NCBI GenBank assembly: GCA_000182565.2
Contig: KQ257460.1
From: Spizellomyces punctatus DAOM BR117
Taxonomy: Eukaryota
Reading direction: 5' to 3' (one strand)
DNA length: 64,000 nt
This document shows positions 1,713 to 61,545 of this stretch, in pieces (position 1 is the first letter of the stretch; every line of letters begins with the position of its first letter). The notes beneath the pieces were generated by a model. It had not been told where the DNA came from. It searched no databases and saw only the letters and a list, made by a program, of their open reading frames with translations. A program made the translations under genes and the position numbers.

Positions 1713-3202
1713 CTACGCCCCTTCATCTTTAGCTGTCTCTTCTACCTTTGCTTCACCCGCAGCTTTAGTGTCCAGGGGTACTGCTTCCTGTTTTGCCTCA
1801 CCAGCGTCTAGCTTAGTCTTTTTAGCATCTCCATTTTGCGTCGCCGCCTCTGGTGCTTTTCGCTTTTTGACAAGGCTAGATATATCTGTGACGGGACCGT
1901 CCTCCTTCTTTAACTCTGGGGAAGGAATCAATTCTGTGGCTTCTTCGACCACCTTGTTCACCGCGCTCATCTTCGCGTGGAGTTCTTCGACCTAATCCAA
2001 GCAAGACGCCATCAGCAACTCAACACATCTTGGTCATCTTATACATAAAAGACGCACCTTTGCTTCCAGATCCGTTATCATCTCTGTCAGCTCTTTGATC
2101 TCTTCACTTTGATCCACGTGAGGGGTTGTCGCAGGTGCCTTGCCCTTACTACTCTGATCCTCAGCTTTAATGGCTTTGAGTTCCTCAAGGCGTTTGCTCA
2201 TATCCGCCATGGCGCGCTTGACTTCATCCAGGGCTTGGGGGTACTGTCCAGTGCCCTCCAACGTGAGAGCAACGTAGTATCGCGCTTCAGCCAACTCGCG
2301 ATGACCGATTTCCGGATATCTTTCTCGGATTTCGAGGGTTTTCTTATACTCTTCCAGAGCTTCCCTGGGGCGATCTGTGGTTTTGTGTCGTAGTCAGATA
2401 AAGCAATGAAATGTTCGACAAGTGGATTCTTATGTACCTCCTTCAAGGTGATAGTGGCCAATCAACAAATAAACATCAGCTAATCGGCGATTGCTCGCTT
2501 CCGAGTCCATTTGCTGGTATGCGGTTGCTGCCACCGTGAGAGCTTCGTATGCAATCTCCATGTCCTCCGCGTCTTCATCAGCTTCTTGTGCTGGGATCTC
2601 TTCGACGTTCTCTGCTCCGTCACCTTCAAAGATAAACCGGGAGGCTTTTTCTGCGAGCTCTTTCAATGCTAAGGATTTGCAAGGGTTAATAACGACATTA
2701 TTTCCACGACCGATAATGATGGGAAATACCAGCAGCTGCCATTTCATCCGGATCCTGAACTTTGTCGTCGACTCCAGACTTTCCAAATACGGAGCTCTTT
2801 TCAACAGCCAAGAAGTACAGAGCCCGACCGTAGAGATAAAGGGCGTCGGCGCATTCCGGGGCACCGTCTCCATAGTGTGCAGACCTAAGTGTGCCAACCT
2901 TGTGAGATATTAACCAGCGAAACATTCCAAAAAGGTACTTACAGAGCAGACACGGCTCTACTCAACTCCTCAGCAGCATACTCATACTGCTTCTCTATGA
3001 TGAATTTCTCCCCCGTCTCCAACATTTGAATAGCTTCCTCGATAGAAGGCAAGTCCTCCTGCTCGTCCTCGAAATCTTCGACGGAGCTACCCGCTACCTC
3101 AGGCTCTTGTGCATCCATATTTTCGGGCTCAGCGGGAGTATTCTTGGTGGAACTGTTGGTAGCCGATTCTTGAGTGGTTGGCAAAGGTTCTTCAGAGGTC
3201 AT
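1713..3202 (-). CDS. NASP/Sim3/Hif1-family histone chaperone (SHNi-TPR), multi-exon
   Basis: Exon pieces YEYAAEELSRAVSAL, HYGDGAPECADALYLYGRALY, EDMEIAYEALTVA, LADVYLLIG, AEARYYVALTLE; C-terminal DISSLVKKRK NLS-like tail; GT-AG introns join the ORF fragments. Confidence 0.85.
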
Positions 3203-3543
3203 TGCGTGATGCCAGTATGAAATGGTGGTGAAAACTCACAGAGTGTCCGGACAAGGAGACCCACAGTCTGTGTCTGGCACGTGTGTGGCTTAGCTGTTAG
3301 CTAATCCAAACTCGATCATGACCCAAAAATTCCCACGCTCGTCTTCTCGTATTTCCTCCATCATTTTCCTTGTCAGCAACTACGAGTTTGAATCTCGCTC
3401 ATGGCAATAACCCATGGCATTTTTACTGCTTTTCAAATCGCATTCGTATCAAGAGATGCATTGGAAAATACTTTGTTTTTTTGTTGGATTTTGTATTGCG
3501 CAGAGCATGACCGCGTTCATCAATGATTGTAAAGTTTCTTCCT

Positions 3544-3867
3544 TTTATTTCATCCTTTATTGTAAGAGACAAGCTCTTTTTCTTTATTACAGGCCCTCCC
3601 CCTGGCCGGAACCAGAGAACACTCCCACCGAGGTGGATCGTGGGTGCCGCTCCCCCAACGCGGGTCACTCAGTCCTGTTCAACCAAAGAAGACTAGAATA
3701 CGCGGCAGGAAATAAAGAAGAAGAAGAAGACAAGAAAAACCCGACCTTGCAAACCTGAGATAAAAGCACAAAACACAAAACAAATACCACCTCAAAAACC
3801 CAAGCACAAGAAAACCCCACCGCGTAAAGAAGAAGCCGGGGGGAGGCGAGAAAGGTCGTCTTTTATA
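3544..3867 (-). other. Putative short non-coding transcription unit or LTR-like element
   Basis: Minus strand reads TATAAAA (3861-3867), a pyrimidine-rich leader, two GT-AG intron-like segments, a GC-rich multi-hairpin module (3589-3678) and AATAAA copies (3583-3588, 3556-3561, 3544-3549). No credible ORF. Confidence 0.4.
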
Positions 3868-3960
3868 ACCCTGGGGGACTGCGCTGTTTTTTGCAATGCG
3901 GAATTCTCGGCGGAAGATAACGTATCCTGCGTACGTCATTCTTCTGAGCACGCCATGAAC

Positions 3961-3991
3961 GCCCAATCATTGTCGCCGCCCAATCATTGTC
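3961..3991. repeat. Tandem duplication GCCCAATCATTGTC x2, each containing a CCAAT box
   Basis: Identical 14-mers at 3961-3974 and 3978-3991, about 100 nt upstream of the minus-strand TATA. Confidence 0.7.
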
Positions 3992-5831
3992 TTCGTCGTG
4001 TTCCCCTCCTGGCGTGCATTCGTTCCCCTTGCACACGCGCGAGCCAATATTATGTAAACGCGCCCATGGTCGAATCATCATATTGCCTTATGGATAATCC
4101 AAGGGCTCTATGGATAATCCAATGCATTCGCCAGCAGCTGCTTTCTAGTGTACAACTGAATGGATTGGATGCAGAATACCGTCGCCTCTTGAAGGCAAGC
4201 AGTGTGTATCTTTTACCGATTAGCGCCGTGTAAAACGTCATGTATTGCATTTGGGCGTCGGTTCTCATTCTTTGCCTGCCAGTCTCCTCAGACCACAGAC
4301 CAGGATGTGCAGGATTTCATAGCAGTAATGCGCAGTGCTACGGATGGTCTTTTGCCCAAAGAGCATTTCATGCTATCGCATCCAATCATACATAATTCCT
4401 TCCATCAAGACTCGAGTCATTACTTTCAATGCATTGCACCAAAAATGCAAGTGCAATGCATTCGAACATAATCTCTACAGGCCCATCCAGGAAGGTCGTC
4501 ATTGTCAGACCTAATTAACTGCCTCTATTACGTTGCACGGATAAGGATCCTTTGAAGGGCATGCAATTTGTCCCTTGCCGTCGGGATAACACGGGACACG
4601 ATGGGCGGCACCTTGACCGCGTGCGCGTTCCATCCAAAGGTCATCTCCTGCTGTCGTCATCATGAATGCATACAAGACAAGGAAGTTTGAAGGAAGATGG
4701 ATGCACATCGCGCAGTAATCCAAGCAGCTCAAGCATGCAGCCGTATGGCAGCGTCTGGCAGAGTCTGGCACTCAATGTAAATGTATCAATGTTTTTCAAC
4801 TTATGCCTTCAGCATATCTCCCAACGTTTCGACTTGATAATGACTGGAACATGGGTTTTACTAACTCATCAGCGTCTATCTTCCAATGATATTCCATCAT
4901 CACACATACAGGTCCTTGAATCTTCCATATCAAGAAGAATGACCAAAGGGGGATACAAAGGCGATGACGCACGCGGATATCGCGTACTCTATCGTCACAC
5001 AGGACAGATACATCAGAACACAAGTCCCTTCCTTCCATGCTTCTTGTCCAATTATCGCTCTAACTCTGAACGCCCATTGGAGTATGCCAAGAACGCTGCT
5101 GCAGGACGGATGGAGGATGCTAGCTCTCAACTCACCACCGTCGTCCTATTCCTTGCTAAAGCCCAGCACTGCATAAAATAATTACACTCTCAAAGTGTCT
5201 TTCTACGAATATTTGAAATTCCATCTTCAAATATACATTAAAATGCCCGTTGAAATATACAAAAGGAGAGGGTGGGTCCATGGGACATGGAACACCTCTA
5301 AGAAAACTGTGCCGCAGACGCACGCGTAACTAAGCCTCGCGAAAAGTTGACATATCGCCTTGGTCTCCTTCCTTCTTTTTCCTATGAGCCCTTCTGCCCA
5401 GGCCCACCGTAGGTTGCATGTCCATCTACTCTTACGGGGTGAACAGCTGCAGTGCTTATTATGCATTATTGGAGATGGATACTCGCATAATTCGTTTAGC
5501 GCATGAATTGGACGGACATTGTTTGTTCTTTGCGCTGTTGAACGAGGTGCAGTAGATCCAGAACGTAATGGGTCATGCAGCTGGTGTACAAAAGAACCCT
5601 GCAATTTCAATTACTCCATGCGTGGATGGAACGACCAGGTTTACCCCTTGCATGATGACGAGTGTATTTGAAATACCTGACCACATTGACACGCGCGCGC
5701 GTTTTTTGTTTTTTTCTTCCGCGATATCCCGAATACCAGCCCCAGCACGCCATCGCAATTAGGCCCCGTTTCTTTTCTTTTTGGAGATTGATGGGGGAGT
5801 ACTGCGCGAGATGGGGGGGCCTCGGAAAGTC

Positions 5832-5840
5832 TATAAAAAG
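5832..5840 (+). promoter_or_regulatory. TATA box of the twister-containing unit
   Basis: TATAAAAAG followed by a pyrimidine-rich tract; the 13-mer GTCTATAAAAAGG recurs at 58396-58408. Confidence 0.55.
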
Positions 5841-5969
5841 GCACCCTCTCGCCCATCTCCCCAACTTGTCTTCACTCGTTTTTTTTCTTCTTCTTCTCAT
5901 GTTTCTTGTTTTCCTCTGTTCTTGCCTTCCTGTTGCGTGCTTGTCTTTCACTTTTCTTATTTATTTTAG

Positions 5970-6335
5970 TTCGTTCGTTCGGTCGTCTTTCGTTCGTTCG
6001 GTCGGCCGGCTTTCATTCGTTCGGTCTTCCCTCCTTCGTTCGTTCGCGTCTCTCCGTTCACTCGGGCCTCATATTTCCTTCGGTTCGCCTCATATTTCGG
6101 TCCGTCGGTCGGTCTTCCTTCGGTTGTGCCTCATATTTCGGTCGTGCCTCATCTCGGTCGGTCGGTCGGTCTTCGGTTGTGCCTCTTATCTCGGACGGTC
6201 CTCATATCTCGGTCGCGCCTCATATCTCGGTCGGTCGGTCGGTCTTCCTCCTTCGGTCGGGCGGTCGGTCGGTCGGTTCTCCTCCTTCGGTCGGTCGGGC
6301 GGTCGGTCGGTCGGTTCTCCTCCTCCTTCGGTCGG
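5970..6335 (+). repeat. Composite minisatellite: (CGGT/CGTT)n, about 7 copies of GCCTCATATYTCGGT-like units, 3 copies of CTCCTTCGGTCGG
   Basis: GCCTCATAT-like units near 6066, 6087, 6128, 6146, 6181, 6199 and 6217, interleaved with GGTC runs; this strand is strongly A-depleted. Confidence 0.9.
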
Positions 6336-6421
6336 CGCGGCGGGTTTGTACCTTGTTTTCTTTTCCGTTTCGGCGCACCATTTCTTTGCAGGGAACGATA
6401 AAGGTGCGTACGTTCGTTTGT

Positions 6422-6497
6422 GGTTCAAATGCAGCCTGCCACAAGTCTTGCACTTGTGGTTGCCGGTCACAAGCCCGGGTAAATGCAGAGTGGAACC
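6422..6497 (+). ncRNA. Twister self-cleaving ribozyme, P1 type with P3 stem
   Basis: P1 GGTTC(6422-6426)/GAACC(6493-6497); P2 TGCA(6430-6433)/TGCA(6484-6487); P3 CCACAAGT/ACTTGTGG; P4 CCGG/CCGG closing loop TCACAAGC. Pseudoknots: CAC(6468-6470)/GTG(6490-6492) and GC(6434-6435)/GC(6473-6474). The core GCCGGTCACAAGCCCGGGTAAA...GAGTG aligns with the rice twister core GCCGGUCCCAAGCCCGGAUAAA...GAGGG as I recall it. Confidence 0.9.
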
Positions 6498-7471
6498 TTT
6501 TGCTATTGTACTTGCCTATGGTGTTTTGGTTGTTTGGGTGCGATAAGTCTTTGTGATCTTGTAATAAAGTGCCTATTGTACAGTAGCAGTTCTTGTAATC
6601 TTGATATAATAAAATATTAAAATGCCTATTCCAAACGACTTTTTCATGACCAATAAATAAAATAATCTTCCAAATTGTCAAACTTGACAATCCAAATCAA
6701 AAACTTGGCGCATATGAGCACTATCTTGAATTTGCAAACATTGTGATGTCGAGCTCAGAAAGCACTAGGCATCAAGCCTGATAGGTCGGTTAATGGAACA
6801 AGAGCCGTGTCAACGCACATTGGAGATGTGATACCAGCCAGTGTTTTCGCTGATTCGGGAGGCCCGCCAATCTGTGCACGGACAAATTTCAACACAAAAG
6901 TGTTAGAATCCCGTCAGCAAAGAATTGTCCAGCACGCTGCCAAACTGTTTTGATATCTCGTACGTTTCAAAGGAGCTTGGAGCCACTGCTACCGGTTATC
7001 GGTTATTGTACGCACGCAAGCTACCCAATACGCTCAACCCAATGACAATACTGCTCGTAGCCTGGGATTATTTCTAGATCTACACTATTATCCACTTCCA
7101 TATATATAGCTCATCCTCTACCAATGAATATGTCGATGGAATATGCACCGCCAGTGCTGCGTCAAACGTAGGCTTGGTCGTACGCGGATGATGTGGAATA
7201 GCATGCTGTCAAATAGAAAGACTTGCAGATGAAAAGGCGTCGGACGTTGTCTGTTCACACCACTTTTTGACCAAAAGATGGTGACGGTGGCCAAACTTCT
7301 TACAGAGGTGGAAGAGCTGACAAGGACGATCACACATTGTCCTCCACAGAAAGGTAAGGGTATTTCAAAATAACGACTATTTTCGAACCATAGAACACAA
7401 ATGAGAAAGAAAATACAAGCAAAAGTTCACACAAACATAAAAAAATATACGCCAGCTATTCTACATCTGCT

Positions 7472-10400
7472 CTACAATTTGGCCTTAACATAGACCTGCT
7501 GCCCAAACGTCCCATCCTCAGACGCAGGGGTACCCAGATTCTTGTTCGTACCTTTCCACCCATCCTCAAAAGCAGCAGCAAGTACCTCATCAACCGTTTT
7601 GGCAAACACAAACTCAATATCCTTTCTCACGTTTGCGGGGACCTCTCGCAAATCATTGGCATTTCGAAACGGTATGATGACCCGTCGAATGCCACCACGA
7701 TGAGCTGCAAGGACTTTTTCCTTGATACCGCCGACGGGGAGTACTTGGCCCCTCAATGTTATTTCGCCTGTCATCGCAGTATGGTCGCGAACAGGTTTTT
7801 GGGAAAAGAGGGAGACGAGGGCAGTGACGATAGTGACACCGGCGCTAGGACCATCTTTGGGAATCGCACCGGCGGGGAGATGGATGTGGACATCGAGACC
7901 TTCAAGGACATTCGAGGTTGAGACTTTGGCGAGACCTAGGCGGGTGGCGTTTGCGCGGACCCAAGTTAGACCCAATTGAGCGGATTCCTTGATCACGTCA
8001 CCCAGTTTGCCTGTCGTTTCGGAGACAAAGCAAAGTCAATAAATCTGTCTTACATTATGACCAAGTCACAAATGGAAAGGAACCTACCGGTTAGATGAAG
8101 CACCCCCTTCCCAGCCATCTGCGTCGCCTCAATAAATAACAATCCACCGGACCCACTGGCTGTCCAAGCCAATCCAGTCACAACACCCGGTATCGAGGCC
8201 CGTTCCGCAACTTCATCATCAAATCTCTCTGGTCCAAGAATCTTCTCCAGCTTTTCTGGTGTCACGTTCCCATTGAACGCATCAGGGGTAGTCTTTTCCT
8301 TTGCATCCGCATACTCCACGGCCATCGCTCGACAAACCGCTCCAATTTCCCGCTCCAAGTTACGGACACCGGCTTCACGGGTGTACCCCGTGGCAATCTT
8401 CATGAGGACATTCTCCTCAATCCGAATTTCGTCAGGTTCAATTCCGTGAGCTTTGATTTGCTTTGGCAAAAGGTGCCGTTTTGCAATGTGAAGTTTCTCA
8501 TCAAATGTGTATCCAGGAATGCGTATCACTTCCTATTAAACGTTGCAATTATGTCAGTTTCTGGTACCAAATCATCACATCTAATTTCAATTTGCTGTAT
8601 CCTCACCATACGATCGAACAGCGGACCCGGAATCGTATCTGCATCGTTTGCGGTGGCAATGAAAAGGACATTGGAAAGATCAAAGGGAACGTTGAGGTAA
8701 TGATCGGTGAAAGTTGAATTCTGCTCTGGATCCAAAACTTCGAGCAATGCTGAGGAAGGGTCCCCACGGGCGTCATGGCCCAGCTTATCTATCTCGTCTG
8801 CGAAAGGCAAACAGCAAGGTGAGTCCAGAAGAATACCAAAGTTTGGACTTATATAAACGATGCAAAAAGCACATACCGAGTAGGATTACTGGATTATTCA
8901 CACCACATCTTCGAAGTCCCTGAATGATCCGCCCAGGAAGCGCACCAATATAAGTTCGCCTATGTCCACGGATCTCGGCTTCATCCCTCACGCCCCCCAG
9001 AGAAATACGATGGAATTTACGTCCCAAGGCATTCGCCAAAGATTTGCCCAGACTCGTTTTCCCAACTCCTGGAGGCCCAAGGAAGCACAAAATTGGTCCC
9101 TTGAGATCTTGCTTAAGTTTCCGGACAGCAAGGTACTCGAGAATACGGGTTTTGACCTTCTCCAACCCAAAATGATCTTCATCCAATTGACTTCGGGCCC
9201 GCGCAATGTCCATCACGTCCTCAGTTTGCTTCTCCCACGGGAGTTCGGACAGCCATTCTAGATAGGTACGAACGACCTGATACTCTGCCATACTCGGATG
9301 CATCCGCTTCAGACGGCGAAGTTCACGTTCAGCGGCTTTGGTTGCTTCTTCTGGCAGTTTTGCTTCGGAGATCCGTTTTGTGAGGTCTGCCACGTCGTCC
9401 TCCTCCTGGTCATCTGACTCTCCCAATTCCTTTTTGATCGCATCAAGCTAGTGCACAAATTGAGCTATTTACCACATTTGCGTAAAGATTTTGATGCGGA
9501 AATTTACCTGTTGACGGAGGTAAAACTCCCGTTGCTTTTTCCCTAATTTACTCTCCACGGTGGATTGTAGCTTTTGAGATATCTTTAGGACTTGTATCTG
9601 TCGCGTGAGCAGCTCCAAGGTACGGGTAATCCGCGTCTTCACATCAATGGTCTCCAAAATTTGCAGTTTTTCCTCCATGCTCACATCGATCATACTGGCG
9701 AACAAGTCAGCCAGCTGACCTGGTGGCGTTGAGTCGAGCATTTGCCTGAGTTGGTTGAGTACTGTTGGTGGAAGCTGTAGTTGGGAAAGAACATTGGCTA
9801 GTTCTTGATTCAAAAAGTTAGCACAACTGCGCAAATTCTATTCGGGAGGGACAAACTAACCATGTCCACTTGTGCGCAGGTTCAGAATGATTGCTTGCAG
9901 CTCTGTGTCCTCTTTATCAATCTCCATCTCCATATGGATGCTTATAGCAGCTTCGAAATATGGAACAGTTTTTACAAACTTTTCAATTTTGAATCGCGCA
10001 ATCCCTGCAAATCAGAGTCAAAACTAAGGCTATTAAGAGGTACCACTAGCAGGAAACCAACCTTCCAATGTCACAGCATATGTAGCGCGAGAGAGTCTAG
10101 CCTCATTAGGACTATTCTTTTTAAATGCCACAATGCGGGCAGCAACACCCCATGAAAAGAGCTCGCTTTGGTCTATAGGTTTCCGGCCATCGTCCTGCTC
10201 GACGGTACGTGGCTTTCCCAAGCGGGATACAGAAGAGGTCGGTGTAGATGTACCGTTACTTGATTGATCATCCTTGGCAATAGGTTTGATGGGAACGCAG
10301 CCGACAATGATGCTCTGGTTTTTCGCATATTGGAGCCATAGCTGGTCCATCAGATGCGTCGTGTCTCTCCTCCCAATTTGCAGGCGAAGCACGATTCCGG

Positions 10401-15331: not shown

Positions 15332-16215
15332 TCACCGCCATTTCTTTGCGCCGTTTTTGTCGACGATGAGAAGAGCGGGTTCAGGTTGAGAAGTTTCCGA
15401 AGGAGGATCAAGGTCCGATGTACACATGGGGCAACGTGTAGCTTTGATGGGAACGTCTTTGCAGCAGAATGGGCACTCCTTGGTCTTGACATCGGGCTTC
15501 TTGCGACGGAACGCAGCAGCATAGACTGATTGAGACATGAGAGTTAGTCAAAAATGTCTGTAAAGATTGTGCACGGCGCTGCTTACTTTTAACAATGAAG
15601 AAAATGATGACCGAGATGATCAAAAAGTTGATTACGCTCTGAACAAAGTTACCCCTAAAATTTAGGATCGGTAAGGGTACGATCGCGATCAGGATCAACA
15701 AGGATCAGTATTGCTTACCAGTTCCTAAAGAGAGCAGCAGCGTTAATAAAGGATTCAGGAGTAGCGCATGTAATACTATGTGCTTACCATGTTACTGCGC
15801 CCGCTTTTTGAGCTTCAGCGGTCGTCTTCCAAAAGTCCTGACAAAAGGAGCGGGGAGGATAGTCCGGAAAGAAAGGCTGGCTTGCGTTAACAGCTTTGGG
15901 ACAACGCAGGATCAAAAAGTTGTTGGCCAAGTTGGCCGACGTTGCCAACGAAATGAAGGGCGTGAAAATGTCTTGCACAAGCGAGGTAACGATCGCTGTG
16001 AAAGCCGCTCCCATAACGATACCGACCGCGAGGTCAACCACGTTACCCCGGTTCAAGAACTCTTTAAAGTTGTCCAGGACACCGCCGACAGCTTTGACGC
16101 CCTTCATGGCACCGCTTCCCACTTGGTCTGCAAACTTGTTCACGCCCTTCTTTTCAACTTTGGGAGAGCCCATTGGGTAGGCCTCGATATCCATGTCTCG
16201 CTGTCTTCCTGACAT
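15332..16215 (-). CDS. mscL: Large-conductance mechanosensitive channel MscL with C-terminal CxxC-CxxC zinc ribbon
   Basis: [37 protein letters not shown]; second helix [15 protein letters not shown] restored by a 6-nt exon (15719-15724); tail [22 protein letters not shown]. Confidence 0.92.
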
Positions 16216-16940
16216 TTTGCTGTCTCTCGTTAAACTCGTCCGCCAACTACAATCGCAAACAGATCCCGGGCGATTGCAACGCAAGGTCCTCCCTTTTTAT
16301 TTTCCGTCCCAGTTGCAAAAACCATCTTCTTTCTGAAACGCGTTGGCCGTCGGAGGTTGTGTAATCTCGTGACTTTTGTGTAGGTAAGCATATTCCGCGC
16401 CAAAATCCAACGATCGATCCACCGCCGAACCATTTGACATGCTCAACTTTTCTTGCGATGCTTTGGTGGTGGTCTTTCTGCTTCCGTTGGGTGGGATGGC
16501 TGTTCTTTAAGTGCTTTGATTGACGTTCCAACTATAAGTGTTGATCGATACGTTTTAACACGTTGCATGAACGTTGTGGGTGTGCTGATCTCGCCATGGC
16601 CAGAAGGATTCTATCAACGTGACTGTGCCGCCGCATCACGCCCCCAGCCTCCGCGTCCGACAAGCGTCTTCTGGACTGCGATAATAACCTCAAAAGTTGA
16701 CAATTTCCCCCTCCATTGTTGTTTGGACATTTTGTTGCAACCCGGCATTGGTCAGGCATCTACACTGTCGTCCGAGCAGATACTTTGGGGTCTGCCAGCG
16801 GTTTCAGCAATCCATTGTCGGCACGTTTGGCGACTTGCAGCGAAAACGGTCACCAACAGCCACAACAACAGTAGCTTGTCAGTGATACAATTACCTCTTG
16901 CTCCCCACACTTCAACAGCGTACGCCCTATCACATCAACC

Positions 16941-59088: not shown

Positions 59089-60658
59089 TCAAACCGTGAC
59101 CCCGTTGTGTCGCCGAATCTTCTCAGCAGCCTCCTTGGCTTTATACATGTCCTGTTCACGATTGTACCTCGCACGTTCCCGATCAAAGGCTTCTATGCAA
59201 GCCTTTGAGGAGATTCCGTAGGGGCGGTCCCCTTGGAATATGAACGTAGGGACTGCACAAAATTGATGATCAGTATTCAGTTTGGTCGCAATACCATCAA
59301 CAGAGAAGTATCATACTATGTCCACGGTATCCTGGAATTGGCTGCGATTTGGCCAAGTCCTTTGGCGGAAGAGAAGGGGGCTGACTTATGGCATGGCTGT
59401 GCGTCCAAGTCAATGTCTGCTGTGGGGATCTCAAGCAGTTCTCCACGAAACCTACCTCTTACCATCCCGATTATTGAACTGCTCATAAGCAACCTCAGCA
59501 GTCTTTGCGAATGTTGCAGAATAGTATGTTCGACTCCCAGGTATAAATCCCGTAAATCCTGAAGGTAATCATTGATTAACCAACGAGAACAATGACATCG
59601 CACAAGCAAAAGTCTTCGTAAACGTACCGGGAATTGGTCTTGCCTTCCCCACATTCACTTTAACTGTGTCTTTGGGACTCACATAAGTTGCCGGGGTGTC
59701 CGCGCTCTGCTCCTTGATGTGTTTGTACGGATCCTGACGCGTACGTGGAGCGGTAAATTCGTCCAAAGCTTCCCGAACATTATCCGAATACGGCTATTTG
59801 ACTTTCCAATAAGTATGCAATGGTTTAGAAACATCAGATATCATATCCTTTACCTACCTCGCCAAAATGATTCTGCAGCCTAGGCACAAAGCCCGTATAT
59901 CCAGAAATGAACGTTTTCTGTGGATGATGTTGCGGGAGTTTGTACGGGCTCATATCATCGATTGGAGAACTTGCACTGCCAGCCGATCGTCCGGCGGGGG
60001 GAGGGACTGGAGCAAATCCGGATGCGCCGCTTGCGTTTCCAGCAGCAAATCCGCCGCCATGAGGCACACTGCGCGAGAAGGACCGTTTTGTCTGCACTGG
60101 TCGCTGGGTTGTGTTGCGCGATTTGTGTTGCTGAATGGCTTCGATGCGGTGCGGGAGAGTGGCCTTTGTTTTAAGCATTTGATGAAAATCTGTCAACGAC
60201 GCATTTGTAGTTTCCACATAGGGTCTGCCAAAATGTTCTTGAGATCGAGGTATATAACCTTGTGAAAAGCGTGAGGCGACCGAGATACAATCCATTGAAT
60301 ACAAGCAGGTATATGATTACTCACCTGTGTACCCCGGGACAGGAGGGAATGAAAATCTATCATCGCCGGTAGCATACTTTTTGGCTGTCGACCAAACCCA
60401 CTTGGCAGCATCGTCGCCTTCGCATTTCACCTTGACGACTACATCCTCTTTCAGTCGGTCTCCAGCATCCTGAGAAAGTCCACGTCGCTTTTCAATGGAC
60501 TGTTGAATGATTCCACTTTTGATCGTCGGATCCGTTCGAAGAATATGACGGGTGGCATTGCCATATGTTAAACCGTACTGGTGCTTCAAATTGGGTACGA
60601 AACCGGCATAATTCGGTGTTGCAATACAGGTTTGCGTCGAATCGATGCTAGATTTCAT
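59089..60658 (-). CDS. FAM166/CIMIP2-like ciliary microtubule inner protein, multi-exon
   Basis: Five repeats: TPNYAGFVP...YGLTY, VPGYTGYIP...FGRPY, ISGYTGFVP...FGEPY, IPGFTGFIP...YSATF, IPGYRGHIP...DRPY. Confidence 0.8.
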
Positions 60659-61545
60659 TTTTTTTCCTAGTTGACTAGGCTCGCAGTCTACTTTTGTGGA
60701 ACTTTTGCCAGTATACAGAGTGGGCTACAGGGGATACCAAAGTTCATCGAAGCCAAACAACAGCTGCATCTGAGATTCATTTAAAAATATCATCGGAGGA
60801 TTATTGAATATATGATGTAACCCGCGGCAAAATACCAGATCCTCGTCGGAGGTTTTTGCACAGATCAGCAAATCAGGGTTCCTTTCCTCGACAGCTGGCC
60901 AGCTGCCCCTTTAAAATGCGCTGTGTCTTTGTGACCAAAGATTTCGATGTCAACTGTCAAGGCTGGCTTATCAATGGTATCCGGGAACATACGAATGACT
61001 TCTTCGGCGTCATTATTTTGCGTAGAATGACTTTTCATTGCATCTGCTGAAGAATGGTCAGTCGACGTACCGTGTTACCCTATATCATTGGATGCATGGA
61101 AGTGGTATTGTTTGAAAAGCGAAAAAAAAAAAAAATGATCAGATAAACTGGCTCAACAACCGCACTGCAATTCCAAGTTTGAATAACTACGAGTGCTGGG
61201 CCCTCTTGACATGAAGCCATGTGTTCAGCCAGTCACACTGCGTCCAGGCTACTCCTCACCCCTCAACCGCTCTCCACGGCTCGCTAACTCCTTCTCACGT
61301 CTATCATCATCCAAAATATATCCCCGTCTGCGGACTACTCGGGGAAACTCTCCGTGGTATCATCGTGAGCATAATCTAGCCGCAGAAAGGAAATGGGGGA
61401 ATCGCAATCAAGCGTCCAATTTGCTGGTCTACTTCTGTATTTTGTGCATTGTTGTCGTCGATGCTGACGAGACATGTCTGCTGTGCCACAACCGCGTTCT
61501 GAGAGTATGGACCATCCAACCACTGGCTTTTTCATTGTGAAGTCA

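Follow-up and report, generated by a model that had tools for sequence, protein, structure and literature searches.

A structurally intact type-P1 twister ribozyme in a candidate non-coding transcription unit of Spizellomyces punctatus

Introduction

Thousands of twister ribozymes are known. To our knowledge, almost none has a known job. The class was reportedly first described by Roth et al. in 2014, and the eukaryotic twisters studied so far lie mostly in large repeat families. In rodents, the Clec2 hammerhead is a ribozyme of the 3' untranslated region (UTR) that separates its RNA from the poly(A) tail. Here we describe a twister on the plus strand of contig KQ257460.1 (assembly GCA_000182565.2) from the fungus Spizellomyces punctatus DAOM BR117. 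We refer to the whole stretch of DNA analysed, 64,000 nucleotides (nt) in length, as the window, and all positions are counted within it. The ribozyme (6422-6497) is a genuine and structurally intact member of type P1. It is found between a TATA box and a cluster of AATAAA signals, in what may be an independent non-coding unit transcribed by RNA polymerase II (Pol II).

In PMC11662667, twister is a fold with two pseudoknots of two or three pairs each. Change is tolerated least in the pseudoknots and catalytic residues, the cleavage site is given as 'NA' and the 2014 discovery set is said to have included 'a fungus'. PMC8501958 states that twisters had 'no confirmed biological function' until the case of Perere-3. 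Twister variants head these non-long-terminal-repeat (non-LTR) elements of Schistosoma mansoni. The cut falls just upstream of the ribozyme, leaving the downstream RNA ribozyme-headed and removing upstream co-transcribed RNA. Retrozymes and the LTRs of Penelope-like elements are short non-coding units with a promoter and a self-cleaving ribozyme (PMC6765202). Their ribozymes are hammerheads, found in paired repeats, and the elements occur in many copies with target-site duplications. They also have either a primer-binding site and polypurine tract or an open reading frame (ORF) for reverse transcriptase. The same paper covers twisters engineered into 3' UTRs. Small ribozymes, twisters included, also occur in the 5' UTRs of fungal RNA viruses (PMC13725137).

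The cut predicted here is placed as in Perere-3. In contrast to that element, the locus has no retrotransposon body, reverse transcriptase or target-site duplication, its DNA depth is that of a single copy, and the long, more abundant part of the RNA is upstream of the cut. As in retrozymes and Penelope-like LTRs, a promoter-like signal and a self-cleaving ribozyme share a short non-coding unit. However, we found no paired hammerheads, multi-copy signal, target-site duplication or reverse transcriptase; the primer-binding site and polypurine tract were not specifically searched for. The ribozyme occupies the same position, between a Pol II transcript body and a poly(A) signal, as the Clec2 hammerhead and the engineered 3'-UTR twisters, in which cleavage removes the tail. 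Here, the body is non-coding and the ribozyme is a twister. The fungal virus ribozymes share the fungal setting and the placement of a small ribozyme ahead of downstream RNA. Those are in RNA genomes, before real ORFs, whereas this ribozyme is chromosomal, has housekeeping neighbours and precedes no credible ORF. The papers that we searched contain no description of the genomic setting of a chromosomal fungal twister. The copy at 6423-6496 may already be catalogued or assayed.

Results

An earlier note, made from the DNA sequence, had proposed a twister at this locus. We searched the region with Rfam covariance models. The type-P1 twister model, RF03160, matched 6423-6496 on the plus strand over its full length (model positions 1-68) with 64.7 bits, 2.5 bits short of the gathering score of 67.2. 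The corresponding E-values were 4.1e-14 when 1.2 kb was searched and 2.2e-12 for the whole window. At its curated thresholds, Rfam has no match anywhere in the window, and the twister appears only under E-value reporting. The narrow shortfall can be attributed to the A that precedes the cut, a single U-U in the P3 of the model and insertions in loops. No second ribozyme or hammerhead was detected in the 64 kb at E-values up to 1.

When 6415-6505 was folded in isolation, the minimum-energy and centroid structures alike contained helices P1 to P4, in agreement with the RF03160 alignment. Briefly, P1 pairs 6422-6426 with 6493-6497 (5 bp), P2 pairs 6430-6433 with 6484-6487 (4 bp), P3 pairs 6438-6446 with 6452-6460 (9 bp) and P4 pairs 6463-6466 with 6475-6478 (4 bp). 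The ends enter via P1, and P1, P2 and P4 are all present, P3 being optional; this is the arrangement of type P1. The P3 region is longer than in relatives (26 nt, against a median of 12 for the 56 type-P1 twisters parsed among the matches listed). The energy z-score of the fold was -0.51. Such an unremarkable value is usual for small pseudoknotted RNA. From the alignment, the predicted self-cleavage site is A6427/A6428 on the plus strand (U/AA in the model, A/AA here).

The conserved core letters of type P1 are all in place: AA after the cut, GCC, the loop GUC-CAAGCC, GUAAA and GAG. Departures from the upper-case consensus are confined to the base before the cut (A for U), loop L4 (CAC for CCC) and the 3' strand of the internal loop (GUG for GGG). 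Loop L4 spans 6467-6474, and its C6468-A6469-C6470 is complementary to G6490-U6491-G6492. We take these letters to be the pseudoknot partners, an assignment that follows the structural literature. To test for compensation between the L4 loop and the 3' strand, four patterns were scanned in the viral_contigs of IMG/VR. CAC with GUG was found in 24 stretches and CCC with GGG in 3. The mixed patterns, CAC with GGG and CCC with GUG, were found in 0 stretches each. The departures in the loop and in the strand thus compensate each other as a tertiary pair, and the positions covary cleanly. The ribozyme bears the A-U form of the pair, which is the commoner one in phage contigs. We conclude from the covariance match, the independent fold and the covarying tertiary pair that the element at 6422-6497 is a genuine, structurally intact type-P1 twister, as proposed. 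It shares with other RF03160 members the helices P1 to P4, the conserved loops, the compensated tertiary pair and a match to the full-length model, and differs from them in its score, the A before the cut and the longer P3 region.

Relatives of the core were sought in metagenomes, viral_contigs (loci L121-L147) and prokaryote genome_contigs (L148-L161), collections that contain no fungal genomes and yielded no orthologous locus. The variant core was present in at least 120 metagenome stretches and in 14 prokaryote-genome stretches (Oscillospiraceae, Lachnospiraceae and Clostridia). A 32-nt core is letter-identical to that of twisters from these bacterial genomes and from phage contigs. The A-U core variant with P2 formed by UGCA/UGCA is the common form in the Oscillospiraceae, Lachnospiraceae and Clostridia genomes. 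Among the matches listed, the closest are bacterial or phage twisters and cover the core only (best match 65 nt, 78%). Consistent with this, BLASTN of 5660-6700 against 144 loci, again among the matches listed, found no flank match outside the ribozyme core.

We then examined the surrounding unit using sequencing runs aligned to 3300-7900 at 90% likeness (4 of the 22 listed runs). Run X16 consists of raw RNA reads from a library biased to 3' ends, of which about 6 in 100 were read. Run X17 is a chromatin immunoprecipitation (ChIP) library, and run X1 comprises low-coverage DNA contigs. Run X7, labelled 'DNA?', also comprises contigs; these give no strand, starts, ends or level, and we use X7 as suggestive only.

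A TATA box, TATAAAAAG, lies at 5832-5840 on the plus strand. A 406-nt X7 contig (5877-6282) has its left end 45 nt downstream of this box, and 5877 is therefore our approximate, inferred transcript start. Both strands of the window (128 kb) contain only 7 matches to TATAAAAR, against 3.5 expected. Hence, the spacing between the motif and the contig end is unlikely to be a chance event. A pyrimidine-rich leader follows at 5845-5964 (C+T 83%; A 0.07, C 0.31, G 0.10 and T 0.53). This leads into an imperfect minisatellite at 5965-6340, built from TCGG/GTTC tetramers, CCTCATATCTCGG units and higher-order units of 34-38 nt and 53 nt. Tandem Repeats Finder described it in 8 overlapping rows, with periods of 4, 18, 23, 34, 36, 38 and 53 and matches of 72-90%; a direct-repeat search gave families D1-D6. 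Its A content is 4%. We considered whether the array is a structured RNA and rejected the idea (z-score +2.0; 98 of 100 shuffles fold at least as well). A telomerase RNA, which is a Pol II RNA with a splice-site 3' end, was also rejected as there is no CCCTAA/TTAGGG within 5600-6800.

An 82-nt spacer (6341-6422) joins the minisatellite to the twister. It contains the splice-like motifs GTTTGT (at 6344), TTGCAG (6386-6391) and GTGCGT (at 6404). The twister has the same orientation as the rest of the unit, 546 nt 3' of the putative start and 67 nt 5' of the first AATAAA. The AATAAA cluster, with starts at 6563, 6608, 6652 and 6656, lies in an AT-rich tail (6563-6661) that is the likely poly(A) region. 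These 4 plus-strand signals, of 53 on both strands of the window, are above chance. A 16-nt block is duplicated within the tail, at 6562-6577 (TAATAAAGTGCCTATT) and 6615-6630 (TATTAAAATGCCTATT). The two copies resemble poly(A) signals and are 53 nt apart, and the second has ATTAAA in place of AATAAA. Every motif listed in the earlier note (TATA box, leader, minisatellite, splice-like motifs and AATAAA) is where it had been placed. The twister, TATA box and AATAAA cluster stand out beyond chance; the intron and 12-nt exon drawn from the splice-like motifs do not.

RNA from the unit was assessed with X7 and X16. Contigs of X7 fall only on 3635-3704, 3863-3975, 5877-6282, 6253-6320 and 7358-7900, covering 11 of 30 bins with word depths of 15-58. 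Depth was 23-25 on 5877-6320 and 39 on the neighbouring Lon protease gene, which is on the minus strand. The contigs 5877-6282 and 6253-6320 show 0 differences from the window sequence. The run is empty on 3976-5876 and 6321-7357, and the Lon contig ends at 7358, 114 nt past the Lon stop codon. Given such gaps despite the depth, and the point at which the Lon contig stops, we read X7 as complementary DNA (cDNA), though it is labelled otherwise. If so, RNA of the leader and array would be as abundant as Lon mRNA, to an order of magnitude. The stretch that follows, present in X1 as one 304-nt contig (6322-6625), is missing from X7. Contigs of X1, a DNA run, also break at 6320. Hence, the X7 break at this position is partly a repeat effect.

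In X16, the first mate is sense, as judged from Lon (minus-strand depths of 19.1, 47.3 and 8.4; plus-strand depth no higher than 0.12). Plus-strand depth around the ribozyme was 0.94 in 6226-6379, 1.58 in 6380-6533 and 0.33 in 6534-6687. Minus-strand depth was 0.74 in 6226-6379, with none in 6380-6533 or 6534-6687. The minus signal consists of six partial reads ending at 6346, each matching about 19 nt of low-complexity sequence. We conclude that plus-strand RNA is present over the ribozyme region.

The spacer had previously been read as an intron (6344-6391) followed by a 12-nt micro-exon. This is a reading of motifs not beyond chance. The T at position +3 of GTTTGT is unusual, and one real intron here has it (GTTAGT). 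In the genes for Lon and acyl-CoA synthetase, introns measure 40-75 nt and begin with GTAGGT, GTATGT, GTACGT, GTGAGT or GTTAGT; their branch motifs are loose. Such short introns with GTRNGT starts, together with the typical eukaryotic genes of the window, would suit a filamentous fungus. There is no CTRAY branch motif in 5678-6777, with the qualification that real introns here also use looser branch sites. The run alignments list no splice joints over 3300-7900, where reads are very few, and no supported acceptor was found for the GTGCGT donor at 6404. On motifs alone, a 12-nt exon would be an extraordinary claim, and we have not adopted it.

Coding potential was examined next. Searching Pfam with 44 frames in 3322-7426 gave no family above threshold. 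Rows for Metallothio_5 (15.1 bits) and Humanin (14.7 bits) were under the cut-off, at the level of chance, and were set aside. One candidate frame has 215 codons (5899-6546, plus strand), starts at the first ATG after 5877 and crosses both the array and the ribozyme. Because the array is so poor in A, none of the three plus frames is interrupted within it. We judge the 215-codon frame to be a by-product of this composition. Residues 148-215 of its 215-residue product had 0 matches in an index of 5.8 billion proteins, and most repeat periods are not multiples of 3 (4, 23, 34, 38 and 53). An exhaustive phmmer search of 1.8 billion proteins with the translation of 6340-6543 returned 1 match, P0002 (432 amino acids, E-value 3.4e-12, 6 stretches). 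We rejected P0002 as a homologue. No stretch exceeds 28.9 bits (14 of 35 identical), far below significance among 1.8 billion proteins, and the total score is inflated by six near-identical repeats. Hence, the match was judged to be chance. P0002 itself has a signal peptide and a six-fold Cys-rich repeat, with no Pfam family. The end of its repeat, W-V-P-V-x-N-P-G-K-C-G-V, resembles the translation of the twister core, L-P-V-T-S-P-G-K-C-R-V, which we judge a coincidence. A second frame, of 45 codons with 9 Cys (6483-6620), begins inside the ribozyme; its richness in Cys, Phe and Leu is due to T/G-rich composition. Upstream of the ribozyme, the frames in 5659-6556 have neither family nor homologue, and so the ribozyme does not sit in the 3' UTR of a recognisable mRNA. 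The view in the earlier note that the unit has no credible protein holds.

If the unit were a mobile element, further copies might be expected. With both directions summed, X17 depth was 2.6-4.4 in the 7 bins of 5610-6687 and 1.9-5.7 in the flanks (4070-5609 and 6688-7900), depth in a ChIP library being an imperfect measure of copy number. Word depth in X1 was 1.9-2.7 on the covered bins of the unit (6226-6687; there are gaps in the array) and 2.5-3.2 in the flanks. No variant letters are listed within 5610-6687. The window holds no second copy of the unit, the sole outside match being 19 nt with an E-value of 0.67, and no flanking direct repeats, either as a target-site duplication or as an LTR pair, were found in 5300-7300. 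This agrees with the remark in the earlier note that the window has no target-site duplication or partner LTR. The note had also called for a search for a linked reverse transcriptase. No reverse transcriptase, integrase, transposase or endonuclease family was found by Pfam in 109 frames (50 around the unit and 59 of at least 130 amino acids in 13.4-64 kb). Downstream of the ribozyme, frames of 6747-7426 have no Pfam family, so there is no sign of retrotransposon ORFs. About 860 nt separate the ribozyme from the 3' end of Lon (7358), which is convergent. From its read depth and the lack of a second copy in the window, the unit is apparently single-copy.

The unit is flanked by genes for a TPR protein (2037-2393, minus strand) and Lon protease (C-terminal domain at 7475-8035, minus strand), both identified by Pfam among 50 frames, and no protein-coding sequence is recognisable in the 4-kb gap that it occupies. 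Elsewhere, the window encodes protein kinases, RRP12, ribosomal S10/S20, cysteinyl-tRNA synthetase, a Cid1-type poly(A) polymerase, an MFS transporter and a KH protein. Among these ordinary eukaryotic genes is a clear match to the MscL mechanosensitive channel (15787-16296, minus strand, 72.9 bits). Two adjacent frames at 59837-60724 on the minus strand give weak matches to CMI2B-like ciliary inner proteins (25.0 and 28.6 bits, cut-off 21.6), which would be odd in a fungus that lacks cilia and are probably low-complexity.

The same gap contains an apparent second small transcription unit, at 3577-3867 on the minus strand (3300-4069 in a wider delimitation). It has TATAAAAG at 3867-3860 on the minus strand, and X16 depth peaks at 2053 on that strand in 3608-3761. 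Runs of T before 3577 were read as a poly(A) tail, and there are minus-strand AATAAA signals at 3583, 3556 and 3544. Depth in X17 was 6.5-27.7 on 3300-4069, 2- to 8-fold above neighbouring bins, and mixed variant letters at 3801-4063 suggest paralogous copies or a ChIP peak. Neither Rfam nor Pfam has a match in 3300-4069.

Discussion

We propose that the locus is an independent, TATA-driven, non-coding Pol II unit on the plus strand, in which a twister in the 3' part would cut the poly(A) tail off a repeat-rich RNA. We give this model an even chance. The unit would start near 5877 and end in a poly(A) region 3' of 6563, at roughly 6585-6680. Its primary transcript would comprise, in order, the CT-rich leader, the A-poor TCGG-type minisatellite, the spacer, the twister and the AT-rich AATAAA tail. 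With type-P1 geometry, the cut would fall 5-6 bases into the ribozyme, at A6427/A6428. The 5' product would be a capped, tail-less 551-nt RNA of leader and array, ending in a 2',3'-cyclic phosphate. The 3' product would be a short, uncapped fragment with a 5'-OH, almost wholly ribozyme and poly(A). The ribozyme, as part of the transcript, would thus both form the 3' end of the repeat RNA and rid it of poly(A). Loss of the tail would set the fate of that RNA, which would either stay untranslated in the nucleus or be unstable. We infer that transcription starts at 5877, that the abundant 5877-6320 RNA is plus-strand, that the transcript is cleaved in vivo and that the released RNA has a function.

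The earlier note had offered two readings, and the first, a self-cleaving Pol II transcript, fits both the X7 contigs on 5877-6320 and the X16 plus-strand signal over 6226-6687. A 5' part that is abundant in X7, and a ribozyme and tail that are faint in X16, a 3'-biased library of poly(A) type, loosely fit cleavage. A stronger form of the model, a cellular non-coding RNA gene that uses the twister as its own 3'-end maker, with the capped, tail-less TCGG-repeat RNA released at A6427 as product and the ribozyme-poly(A) stub as waste, is tentative and on balance unlikely.

Several observations weigh against the cleavage model. The match to RF03160 misses the gathering score, and the estimate of copy number leans on an imperfect library. 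The base 5' of the cut is A, whereas the 56 type-P1 relatives obtained by strict parsing of 147 core matches, among the matches listed, have T (53), C (2), G (1) and A (0). Multiple fungal twister candidates were inactive in vitro under the single condition used, according to PMC11662667. There is no X7 contig on 6321-6427, where a 5' cleavage product ending at 6427 should give one, and cleavage would require extra trimming of the 3' end to account for this gap. The abundant RNA may instead end near 6321-6370 by another route. The contig end at 5877 adjoins a T8 run, which would be A8 on a minus-strand RNA, and the contigs carry no strand. The plus signal in X16 is a handful of reads, with nothing on 5610-6225. 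Finally, in the minimum-energy fold of 260 nt (6341-6600), 6341-6352 pairs with the core at 6465-6477, dissolving P1, P2 and P4. This alternative helix has 12 pairs and joins the end of the minisatellite, overlapping GTTTGT, to the P4/L4 core. In a duplex shuffle test, this anti-ribozyme pairing was only weakly beyond chance: 17 of 500 shuffles paired as well when the spacer was tested, and 81 of 500 when all of the upstream RNA was. Such pairing may gate folding or cleavage of the ribozyme, a weak and speculative idea taken from the predicted fold.

Other explanations were weighed against the same data. The twister could be a functionless passenger, the remnant of a transfer, of a virus-derived insert or of a former mobile element, that happens to lie in weakly transcribed intergenic DNA and shares no role with the repeat RNA. 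Plus-strand RNA over the ribozyme is indeed scarce (0.3-1.6 in X16, against 19-47 for Lon), and X7 has no contig there. The closest relatives among the matches listed are bacterial or phage and match in the core only, with no flank match in 144 loci, the minisatellite RNA has no excess of structure, and the inactive fungal candidates (PMC11662667) point the same way. However, a 74-nt motif that retains all strongly conserved positions, four helices and a compensated pair would hardly be so intact in the absence of selection, unless it arrived recently. It also shares the orientation of the unit and is positioned between the TATA-linked putative start and the first of four AATAAA signals. We consider a passenger somewhat unlikely. 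A separate origin for the abundant 5877-6320 RNA, as a minus-strand or independently terminated transcript with the ribozyme only in rare read-through, seems to us a good deal less probable. The strandless contigs, the T8 at the left end, a minus-strand AATAAA at 5960-5965, the end of X7 coverage at 6320 and the six partial minus reads ending at 6346 would suit it. Conversely, the TATA box is oriented for plus-strand transcription at a suitable distance, every full-length stranded read near the ribozyme is plus, the six minus reads rest on low-complexity sequence, and the 6320 break recurs in the DNA run.

The remaining explanations attach the ribozyme to larger systems. It might belong to a protein-coding mRNA, lying in an intron or UTR of an unannotated gene, or heading an uncapped 3' fragment that is translated, for example through the 45-codon frame at 6483-6620. 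Judged by the introns of this genome, GTGCGT at 6404 makes a good donor, the 45-residue frame has 9 Cys and starts within the ribozyme, and self-cleavage is needed for translation initiation in a fungal chrysovirus (PMC13725137). Those virus ribozymes keep a translation-linked reading alive. We hold the mRNA explanation as a whole to be very improbable, as no frame has a Pfam family or homologue, the only library match is a repeat-inflated chance event, there are no splice joints, and composition explains the Cys, Phe and Leu content. Nor is there room for downstream exons before convergent Lon, and X7 is empty on 6321-7357. The second reading of the earlier note, a retrozyme-like or ribozyme-bearing retroelement, would make the unit a terminal repeat or a solo non-autonomous copy that is cut by the ribozyme and copied back. 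The unit is LTR-like in that it is short and non-coding and combines a promoter with a ribozyme and a poly(A) signal, and the tail is A-rich. With type-P1 geometry, the RNA downstream of the cut would begin with the ribozyme, just as Perere-3 does (PMC8501958). That precedent also outdates the view that twisters are not known in retroelements. Even so, DNA reads at 90% likeness reach the same depth over the unit as over its flanks, the only match elsewhere in the window is at chance level, and the 64 kb hold no second ribozyme. Flanking direct repeats and families for reverse transcriptase, integrase or endonuclease are likewise absent from the regions and frames searched, and fewer than 900 nt lie between the ribozyme and the 3' end of Lon. 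We regard a retroelement as the least probable explanation, and the terminal-repeat reading is not upheld.

Should the ribozyme prove to be inactive or to lack conservation, it would be a further orphan copy. A twister that is near consensus, occurs once and has its own promoter-like and poly(A)-like signals would make eukaryotic twister function testable by one mutation. If the host is transformable, a single point mutation could reveal the effect of self-cleavage on the RNA. If the stronger form of the model is true, this would be the first physiological role for a twister in a chromosomal Pol II transcript.

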